DNA from: Tubulanus polymorphus
Taxonomy: Eukaryota; Animalia; Nemertea
DNA: 64,000 bases
Direction: 5' to 3'
Assembly (NCBI RefSeq): GCF_964204645.1
Contig: NC_134033.1
Location: 6,596,231-6,660,230 of the forward strand
Position numbers and translations under genes: made by a program. The stretch's first letter is position 1. Every line of letters starts with the position of its first letter. Shown here piece after piece: positions 25,101 through 47,604 of this stretch. Under the pieces are notes generated by a model that searched no databases, was not told where the DNA came from, and worked only from the letters and a program-made list of their open reading frames with translations.

Positions 25101-28100
25101 GTCGTACCACGCCGTATCACGAAATGGGTAACGGTCACTGCGAGAGATTCAATCAGACTCTAATCGGGCTCTTAGGTACGTTAGCCAATGAGTCGAAGAC
25201 AAAGTGGCGTGAACATCTCCAAGCGGCTGTTTTCTCGTATATCGTTCCTCCGCCGCCACTTATGGATGAGGTGTTGCCGCCGCCAGGAGGTTTTGAGGCT
25301 GTCCGGAGTCCTAGGAGGTCGAAACGCGTTGGGGTGAGGAAACCTGCTCGTTACAGGGATAGTCTTGTTATAGCAGAGCCGTCTTGGGTTCAAAAGGCAG
25401 CGTTGAGGGCTTTGGTACAGTTGGTGAGTGGTTCCGGACACATCACGTGAGAAATCTAAATCGGTTTTAATGGAGCTGTTTTTGAATTGAATAAATATGC
25501 ACTTAATGAATGATCATGTTGTTGTTTTTATATGTTTTACAGTCATGAAGGGCATCGTGAAATTCGGGCGTGTCCCTAGGTTCGATCTGTTTTTGTGTTT
25601 TGATTCCCTTTGTAAAAAAAAATCGAAAATTTGTGTTTTGTCCTCGTTCTGTTCGGAAGTTTTATTCTGGGGACCAGAATATTTTTAAACTGGGGGGGGG
25701 GGGGGGGGAGGATGTGGTAGCCAGTATTTTCATTGCAGCTATTAGCTCAACTTGCTTCATGGTTGTATTGTGCTGCCCTCTGAGGAACACCTGATATCAG
25801 CTGACCAGATCAGTTTTGCCTGGTCATTGTGAGAATCAGGTTGATGTAATAAACTTCATGATCATATGGTTCATGCTCGTTTTGTTATTTAATATTCAGG
25901 TTGTTGTCCCGGATGGTGAGCAGTCAACTGTGAGGATTTTGTCGCTGTTTCTTCGAGAAATCCAGTCGTCGAGGCCTCTTTAATCAGTAACCCGCGCATG
26001 CCTTTTTTGCGGTTACGACATAAACAATAAAATTGAATGATCTATTGTATCAAAGGCCTTTTTAAGGTCAAGTAGAATAAGTGCTGTAATTTTTCCATCT
26101 TCCAGGTTTTTACTGATTTTTTCTAGTAATGTTATCAATGCTAAATCAGTTGAATATTATGTATAATTATATGTTATTCTAGTAGGTACATGGATGAGTG
26201 GTTTAAATCCTGTAGATATGACTCCGTTTAGAAATTTTGAGGTTTGGTGGCATTGATCACTCTTTAATAGATTTATGTTATAATCTCCTAGTAAATAATA
26301 CTCGGTTTTGCTATTTTAAATAAGTTGGTGGTCTCTCAAATTCGGTATTGAAATTATCAATCTTTGTCCCTGGGGAAATATCGCGCCCAGTATAATATTC
26401 TTATTTTTACAGGATATTTTGATAAATAAACATTCTAATACATGCGTATCATCGGAGATTAGATCCGATCGTAATTTGAAATTTACATCTTTTTTAATAT
26501 AAAAACCGACACCACCACCGACTATGGTGGCTGATTCGGGCCATAATAAAAAAATGTTCTGTACGGCTAAAGCAACGATAACAAAATTTTCGCAGTGGCC
26601 CTTTGTTGGTTTTCTCGCGCGAGAATTCAAAACTTTTCTTTTTATCCAGCTTCTAGCCAGTCAGAAAAATTTTTCAAACCAAAATGTTTAGTTTTCTCAG
26701 AGAAAAGCCATGATTATTGTTTGTGCGGAGAAAAACCATTATTCAAATTGGTACTAATATTGTGACGAGTAATTAGGGCAGACTCAATTATGTGGCGTTT
26801 AGTGTAATTGCTGGAAGTATAAATAATTTCGGCTTTATCAAAATTAAAACGATGACCAGTGTTCCAAACGTGAGATATTAGTACCAATAAAGATATTAGT
26901 ACCAATTTGAATAATGGCTTTTTTCCGCACAATTCCCTTCTTTCTTAGTATATTACTTCATGCCTTGCCAAACACTAATTATTTACTCACTCACCAATTT
27001 ACTCAATTAACCTGTTCTCCTCTGTATATATACCCCTGTTTTTAGTCTATATCTCACACATGACGATGATCTCTAGGGTGAGATCCAAACGTCGTGTCTT
27101 ATATATATTTTAGATTGAATAAATAAATTCTTGATTTTAAATTCTTTTAATCTGTAAATAATGGGTTTTTATCTTATTATAAAATTGAAATTTTAGAAAC
27201 ATTACGTAGTAAAATTGGGCCTGCAGCTATTAATTTTAGATTTTTTAAAGGAGCAACAGTAGAAGATTATAGTAAATTTATTGAAATCATGGAAAAAATA
27301 CTAGATTTTGTAACAGATGTTGAATATCCAAAAATTAGTATTTCTGGAAAAGTAAGTTTTATCAAATCAGAAGTAAAAGTGGATTATAAATTCAAACATA
27401 CTCTGAAGAAATAATTTCAAAAACACAATTAAAAGAGAAGTTAGAAAAAATATTTAATGAATTTAAACGTCATATTGAGGAAAGATATTTTGAGGGTTCT
27501 GGTTTGACATTGAATGAAATTATATTTCTAGATTAAAATATTTATAATACAACGAGAAATAAAACATCAAAAAGTAATACAATGTTTAAAAATGATTCAA
27601 ACTTTACTACAGAAAAGGATATTAAAGCATCATCTTATATTAAATTACCATTTACAACAAAAGCAGTAATAAATGTTCAAAATGAAGATAATAAATGTTT
27701 TCTGTGGTCAATTATTAGTTGCTTACACCCAACCGAAGATATTACGCATAGTTTTAGAATAACAAATTACCGGAAATATGAAACATTATATAAAATTGAT
27801 CAATATCCAGTAATTATAAAGATGATTCCTAAAATAGAAAAAGTTAATAATTTAGAAATTAATGTTTTCGAATTAATGCAATGACCAGAGACAAAAGGTA
27901 AAAATATTAAAGAATATACATTAGAAGCTTTATACTTAACAGAATATTATGATGATGAAAATGTTATAGATTTGTTATATTACAAAAAAGATGAAAATGA
28001 ACATTATATGTGGTTAAAACAAATTGATTTATTCTTTAGAACAGAAAGTGATCATCATAATAAAAATTATCTATGTAGAAAATGTTTATCTAAATTTATG

Positions 28101-47604: not shown

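Follow-up and report, generated by a model that had tools for sequence, protein, structure and literature searches.

Animal Polintons may multiply by themselves in the nucleus or may depend on a helper, and the family of elements described here bears on that question. The window, that is, the whole stretch of 64,000 nucleotides that was analysed, contains a decayed, left-truncated group 2-type Polinton that is multi-copy in its species (Table 1). An earlier note on this DNA had proposed a virophage-like Polinton dependent on a large DNA virus, with late-type promoters and a giant-virus-like intein as two independent pointers. The argument from the promoters stands; the intein does not hold up as an independent pointer to the same partner, and a VLTF3-like late transcription factor gene, which the earlier reader did not report, supplies a helper-free rival. 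Taking the promoters alone, we suspect that intact copies are transcribed by a poxvirus-type RNA polymerase from a co-infecting large DNA virus. This is the best single reading, at somewhat under an even chance, and a satellite lifestyle is plausible.

Table 1. Features of the Polinton and its insertions (window coordinates)
Feature	Position	Strand	Evidence or remarks
Polinton	27184..46700	.	low G+C, pPolB alignment, fall in read depth
Family B DNA polymerase, protein-primed (pPolB), broken, first ~120 codons missing	27184..34558	+	Pfam; pieces collinear with intact relatives P0134, P0135 and P0137 (52-79% identity, 27184 to 34552)
TE insertion 1, short	30090..30633	.	terminal inverted repeats, TA on both sides
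Polymerase motif C intein carrying a LAGLIDADG endonuclease, broken, transposon-split	30695..34102	+	
TE insertion 2, DNA transposon within the intein	31644..33975	.	long terminal inverted repeats, 9-base target duplication
VLTF3-like late transcription factor gene, broken	34637..35307	-	Pfam PF04947
(TA)58 run, splits the VLTF3 gene	35043..35158	.	
Zinc-finger ORF, broken	35321..35750	-	TAAATG start
Minor capsid protein gene, broken	35816..36587	+	profile; start damaged, outside the start count
81-codon ORF without family	36588..36833	+	TAAATG start
Small ORF, broken, without family	36945..37190	+	TAAATG start
Open 138-codon gene	37207..37623	+	common to related Polintons (31-39% identity); TAAATG start
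ORF split by TE 3, without family match	37643..38570	+	TAAATG start
TE insertion 3, 501 bases, (CAAAT)n tail	37874..38374	.	missing in other copies; reads join 37873-38375
Long gene	38595..40780	+	common to related Polintons L013 and L031; TAAATG start
Double jelly-roll major capsid protein gene, broken, split by TE 4	40801..43310	+	TAAATG start
TE insertion 4, high-copy, 154-base tandem core, ACGG run	41919..43191	.	missing in other copies
rve integrase with chromodomain, broken	43346..44472	+	Pfam rve E 5.7e-11; TAAATG start without T-run
A32-type packaging ATPase, broken	44473..45071	+	Pfam E 3.7e-10; TAA of its TAAATG is the stop codon of the integrase
Gene common to L001	45275..45780	+	59-68% identity; TAAATG start
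ORF like L001:5777	45816..46183	+	likeness by eye; TAAATG start
Open 109-codon ORF without family	46303..46632	-	TAAATG start with 9-T run

The features that place the element among Polintons are the broken pPolB, the rve integrase, the A32-type packaging ATPase, and the genes for a double jelly-roll major and a single jelly-roll minor capsid protein. Pfam, profiles and collinear alignment all bear out the earlier claim that the element encodes these proteins itself. Outside the insertions its DNA has a G+C content of 22-25%, and without them it is about 15 kb long. The left end is absent and the right end is approximate; in the raw DNA run of the species, read depth drops past ~46730. No terminal inverted repeat pair was found between the Polinton ends in the window, the left end itself being gone. 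That this copy is dead and carries four TE insertions, as had been claimed, is evident from the alignments: the pPolB lies in nine segments with 8 in-frame stops relative to P0135, its intein in four segments with 2 stops, and all four TEs were located. The break at the left edge is adjoined by a palindromic short element, of which the loop and one arm lie at 27060-27160 and a whole copy at 54905-55070.

The major capsid gene aligned as seven collinear pieces with a profile of five related ORFs, and the predicted model of the related capsid ORF of L031 (mean pLDDT 58) resembles double jelly-roll capsids (Foldseek E 2e-11, TM ~0.3). The capsid groups with those of Polinton loci L010, L013, L018, L031 and L104, and the mavirus capsid ranks 45th by fold. 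The minor capsid gene is recognised as three collinear pieces (best E 2e-8 to 7e-10) by profile search, the only search that gave matches, pairwise tests not being significant; the seed ORFs of that profile, labelled by motif pattern, are presumably minor capsid genes. Scans of viral contigs with the capsid and the 138-residue family gave no matches, and a 535-residue ORF had none in Pfam or Atlas. Rfam matched nothing.

In the raw DNA run of this species that best covers the stretch, compared over 35200-48000, depth was ~120-790 in Polinton bins outside the high-copy TE, against 15-28 in the right flank. Reads over the Polinton in this interval are mostly 90-99% alike, and the window copy differs by 5-10% from most reads. 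Given the multiplied depth and the read likeness, the copy is therefore old and its family has roughly tens of members. Two of the four TE insertions are skipped by reads from other copies.

Group 2 Mavericks or Polintons (Polintoviricetes), as described for adintoviruses (PMC8502044) and coral polintoviruses (PMC11131425), likewise have pPolB, a chromodomain-bearing rve integrase, A32 ATPase and both capsid genes, a length of ~15 kb and multiple copies. The window element differs from them in its fixed T-run and TAAATG starts, which are rare in the sampled related loci, in its motif C intein, in its lost left end, and in that no protease was found. The protease search compared a 26-member profile with 549 pieces of 26500-47200, and the lost end could have held such a gene. 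An adenovirus-type maturation protease is typical of group 1 Polintons and variable in group 2. Placement among the true virophages (Virophaviricetes) was considered and rejected, given the Polinton-type capsid and the protease not found. The earlier note had also pointed to the lack of a recognisable RNA polymerase. Indeed no subunit was matched in the Polinton, but the broadest scan was a weak test that, with its longer read-throughs, also missed the known VLTF3 match, and Polintons are described as ordinarily without an RNA polymerase (PMC4405056).

The promoter signal proved stronger than had been claimed. TAAATG stands at 12 of 13 examined Polinton starts, whereas among the element's remaining ATGs 5.6% are preceded by TAA (binomial P ~1e-14, for 13 starts chosen by hand, four of them without a homologue to fix them). 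A conservative figure comes from the six starts fixed by homology (37207, 38595, capsid, integrase, ATPase and 45275), all six of which have TAAATG (0.056^6, ~3e-8). A T-run accompanies 9 of the 12 TAAATG starts, as against 2 of 32 internal TAAATG; it consists of five to nine T and in 9/9 cases ends 5-7 bases before TAAAT. The vaccinia late promoter is described as a T-containing core, a gap of 5-7 bases, and TAAAT(G/A) over the start site (PMC5294985), and the Polinton signal closely matches this published layout. The T-run, the 5-7 base spacer, TAAATG and a VLTF3 family protein are what the Polinton has in common with the vaccinia late promoter and VLTF3 (A2) and with the yeast pGKL initiator. 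Unlike vaccinia, the Polinton yielded no detected RNA polymerase, capping enzyme, VLTF1 or VLTF2. Stop-start overlap was rejected as the cause of TAAATG, a long upstream frame being closed by only 2 of the 12 TAA. A+T richness was rejected as well, given the low background and the equally A+T-rich loci L096 and L018, where TAAATG stands at 1/11 and 1/7 starts.

Judged by comparison with other loci, the signal is real and lineage-specific. Across 55 other pPolB loci TAAATG occurs at 24 of 462 starts, in only 3 of them together with a T-run. The corresponding counts for 80 giant-virus polymerase loci, all non-poxvirus, are 95 of 955 and only 9, and single giant-virus loci reach 5/14 and 6/21. 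The bare hexamer at so many giant-virus starts is therefore not poxvirus-specific. A matrix built from the window starts recovered 11 of 12 in leave-one-out, as against 8/935 starts in 73 giant-virus loci and 5/476 in 52 other pPolB loci; it was scored on these two classes of loci, and the likeness to poxviruses is to the published vaccinia layout. In L001, the window's sister and closest relative with DNA, TAAATG stands at 3/4 intact starts (matrix 1/4), and its integrase does not have it. L090 has TAAATG at 6/6 starts, including that of the polymerase (matrix 1/6), and L103 at 5/14 (matrix 3); neither is close to the window Polinton in the polymerase tree. The pPolB element at L090 1-9034, in which protease and integrase are fused, is not related to the window Polinton and forms a second, apparently independent TAAATG lineage. 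Depletion of AATAAA and splice donors in coding DNA, measured by codon shuffling, did not separate nuclear from cytoplasmic elements: the window had 30 against 27.2 expected, and motif-free loci were alike.

In the reading that we prefer, with a poxvirus-type helper polymerase, integrated copies would be quiet in the nucleus. The helper polymerase would start inside the AAA of TAAAT, slip, and add a poly(A) leader; slippage at TAAAT is described as giving poly(A) leaders in vaccinia and in yeast cytoplasmic elements (PMC6211774). The Polinton's VLTF3, expressed from an earlier promoter class, would favour the element's own late promoters. Genome copying and packaging would then fall to the pPolB, ATPase and capsid proteins, and re-insertion to the integrase. 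We infer that such a start would account for the T and the in-frame stop directly before the ATG, because the message would begin in the AAA and gain its A leader by slippage. An untemplated A leader would thus point to a poxvirus-type polymerase, and the sharp promoter together with the element's own late factor makes the helper question testable.

There are precedents for such a partnership. Mavirus/EMALE with CroV, and Tetraselmis Polinton-like viruses with TetV-2, are likewise integrating pPolB elements with one motif before nearly all genes, and endogenous virophages are reported to respond to no helper but one with the late promoter that they themselves bear (bioRxiv 2025.10.09.676808). 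The window Polinton differs from these in its Polinton-type capsid, in a poxvirus-like motif rather than TCTA and in encoding VLTF3; its helper and its reactivation are putative. Polinton-like viruses also accompany entomopoxviruses (PMC11296320). Compared by description, these are the same kind of small capsid-coding elements, proposed as parasites of invertebrate poxviruses. They differ in having been found in occlusion bodies, and in the two that have PolB no integrase was detected; the words 'promoter' and 'intein' do not occur in the text of that paper (PMC11296320).

The VLTF3 gene could serve either side. Its Pfam match (PF04947, E 2.2e-6) scores 27.9 bits against a cut-off of 25, and Atlas gave 0.94, with recognition slightly below threshold. 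The gene apparently starts at 35307, with a Cys-x2-Cys zinc ribbon in its 5' part, a part recognised by eye and through a weak L010 match. It is the sole examined Polinton start without TAAATG. A word-based search and the fetched loci gave no longer homologues of the window piece. VLTF3 is already known in a subgroup of Polintons (PMC11131425; PMC8502044), and L010, a Polinton with the same capsid module, has an open copy at 5447-6085 (Pfam E 1e-16; its single-sequence fold, at pLDDT 36, is unusable). L010 has TAAATG at only 1/10 starts, most of which follow a TATATA-type sequence. The factor could bias a helper's machinery, or it could act as a switch for host RNA polymerase II. The latter is presumed for mriyaviruses, described as having VLTF3, lacking an RNA polymerase and being predicted nuclear (PMC11253617).

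The second possibility leads to the main rival, an autonomous nuclear virus, which we consider rather unlikely. In this scenario host RNA polymerase II would read VLTF3 first, and VLTF3 would then steer the host polymerase to the T-run and TAAAT box of the other genes. Such an account needs no unseen virus, agrees with the standard view that Polintons are nuclear and use host enzymes (PMC4405056), and would explain why, of the genes examined, VLTF3 alone has no box, although that exception would also fit a helper's earlier promoter class. The mriyaviruses (PMC11253617), the Polinton subgroup with VLTF3 (PMC11131425) and L010, with VLTF3 and TATATA-type starts of its own, all speak for it. Against it stands the spacing, which closely copies the vaccinia late layout. 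Moreover, a start at TAAAT would leave a leader of 0-3 bases with a T at -3. Such a leader is poor for host scanning.

The same observations, namely VLTF3 without RNA polymerase in nuclear viruses and the single TAAATG among the ten starts of L010, were counted against a poxvirus-type helper, as were the weak matrix match in L001 and L090 and an intein that points to another virus group. We grade the more elaborate form of the helper reading as doubtful. In it the element would live as the satellite of a poxvirus-type virus, endogenous and equipped with an integrase, waiting in the germ line, read by a slipping helper polymerase that its own VLTF3 draws to the Polinton promoters, and with a giant-virus intein homing among Polinton copies, in a host without a described poxvirus. 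If it were true, the Polinton promoters would predict an undiscovered poxvirus relative.

The intein has Ser first, Asn last and Thr at +1, interrupts motif C, and includes a LAGLIDADG piece above the Pfam cut-off. With splicing and LAGLIDADG domains, nucleophiles and empty-site alleles all present, it is by its sequence an intein with a homing endonuclease. Open relatives are P0001, P0149 and P0004. The first 151 residues match best the pPolB P0001 (67%), followed by RNA-primed polymerases and the other-class pPolB P0004 (51%). It resembles the motif C inteins of giant-virus family B polymerases in insertion point, Ser start, Asn end, LAGLIDADG endonuclease and a length of ~350 residues, so the likeness claimed by the earlier note was right. 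The Polinton inteins differ from those in sitting in protein-primed polymerases and in making up a clade of their own, on a long stem, that spans two pPolB classes.

The distribution of the intein is patchy. It occurs in 2 among the best 120 of 4276 pPolB relatives and in none of 148 fetched loci, 122 of which have an uninterrupted motif. The window's nearest polymerases are without it (support 99 in the polymerase tree, from which ten loci were left out by the motif filter). In the P0149 cluster (P0149 and P0394-P0407, on contigs up to 1 Mb), among the 15 listed of 136, it is open in 7 and missing in 5, the other 3 members being fragments. Identity within the cluster is 94-99% upstream of the intein site and 87-91% after it, a drop that may reflect co-conversion during homing.

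In trees of inteins of 300 to 450 residues, near-duplicates removed, all four pPolB inteins group together in a single clade (SH 99 with 145 rows; 100/100 and a stem of 0.51 with 37 rows). The three hosts of group 2 type belong to a single polymerase clade of 14 rows and branch in the same order as their inteins, a pattern consistent with a single ancient capture, later loss and homing, and in addition a jump to the P0004 class. Closest outside this clade (SH 94, not starred) are the inteins of L159-L162, which are giant-virus MAG contigs, and of similar proteins, along with those of T4 gp43-like polymerases; in the 37-row tree the sister of the pPolB intein clade lacks resolution. Of the polymerases that host these neighbouring inteins, two are Pol-delta-like (E 1e-176 and 7e-106), poxvirus and asfarvirus enzymes being far (E 6e-21 or weaker). 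Genes neighbouring the giant-virus polymerases with the nearest inteins have no full promoter, with TAAATG at 10 of 59 starts in L159-L162. P0259 and P0294 are T4 gp43-like polymerases with an intein nested among giant-virus inteins, P0259 being ~30% identical to cyanophage and pelagiphage gp43; on this nesting, theirs is a transfer from a eukaryotic virus to a phage-type polymerase.

The donor of the Polinton intein was thus not poxvirus-type, the event was ancestral, and the same group occurs in phage-type polymerases that belong to no satellite; promoter and intein fail to point to a single partner, contrary to what the earlier note had supposed. We infer that the intein is a separate, older passenger, acquired in a single event from the polymerase of a giant virus other than a poxvirus, and afterwards lost or spread anew among Polintons by its own endonuclease.

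An old and patchy intein would also suit a relic, in which promoters, VLTF3 and intein all date back to an ancestral parasite of a large virus, possibly in a different host, and the family spread here as a nuclear transposon. The distance of the window copy from most reads (5-10%), its four TEs and the weakness of the full motif in the nearest relatives point the same way. We find this quite improbable, since the motif is still sharp at 12 starts amid heavily broken genes, which means that it was under selection until the copy integrated, and since a transposon would still have to express integrase and polymerase from these starts. Least probable of all is a non-poxvirus partner, either a giant virus of Megaviricetes type, resembling the intein donors, or a linear element in the cytoplasm that has a polymerase of its own (the part played by yeast pGKL2 for pGKL1): the nearest inteins lie in L159-L162, L170 has T-run and TAAATG at 3/14 starts and the yeast elements have a TAAAN slippage initiator (PMC6211774), but the intein branch is long, and the low counts of TAAATG in L159-L162 and of matrix matches in the 73 giant-virus loci stand against it.

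Our literature search, conducted at the level of abstracts and with subscription papers outside it, returned no paper on such promoters or on a splicing intein in a Polinton polymerase. The word 'intein' is absent from PMC10748475, and endonuclease insertions in pPolBs have been suggested to stem from intein invasions (PMC11161782). VLTF3 in Polintons is already known, whereas the TAAATG promoter set and a complete pPolB splicing intein were not found in the literature searched. The intein, which some Polintons carry and others nearly identical to them lack, and which has crossed between polymerase classes, indicates gene flow from giant viruses to integrating elements.

Several further elements were seen around the Polinton and among the loci compared with it. 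A Gypsy-type LTR retrotransposon occupies 19284-26021 of the window, with an open 1185-codon pol (21893-25450); its long terminal repeats are near-identical, and its insertion is therefore recent. The sequences at 8240-9289 and 41919-43191 (TE 4) are two oppositely oriented copies of an element of very high copy number that has a tandem core of 147-154 bases and a run of ACGG, at a depth near 9000; we take it to resemble the Helentron-associated 'pearl/HINE' elements. The 46 loci L103-L148, with Polinton-type polymerases in 'prokaryotic' genome bins, are probably binned eukaryotic or viral contigs. Host exons of a sulfotransferase and a homocysteine methyltransferase lie in the right flank of the Polinton (47128-47604 and 58473-60595), and the flanking DNA agrees with the animal host that the earlier note presumed. 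A+T-rich tandem arrays with 92- and 55-base periods occupy 1537-2693.
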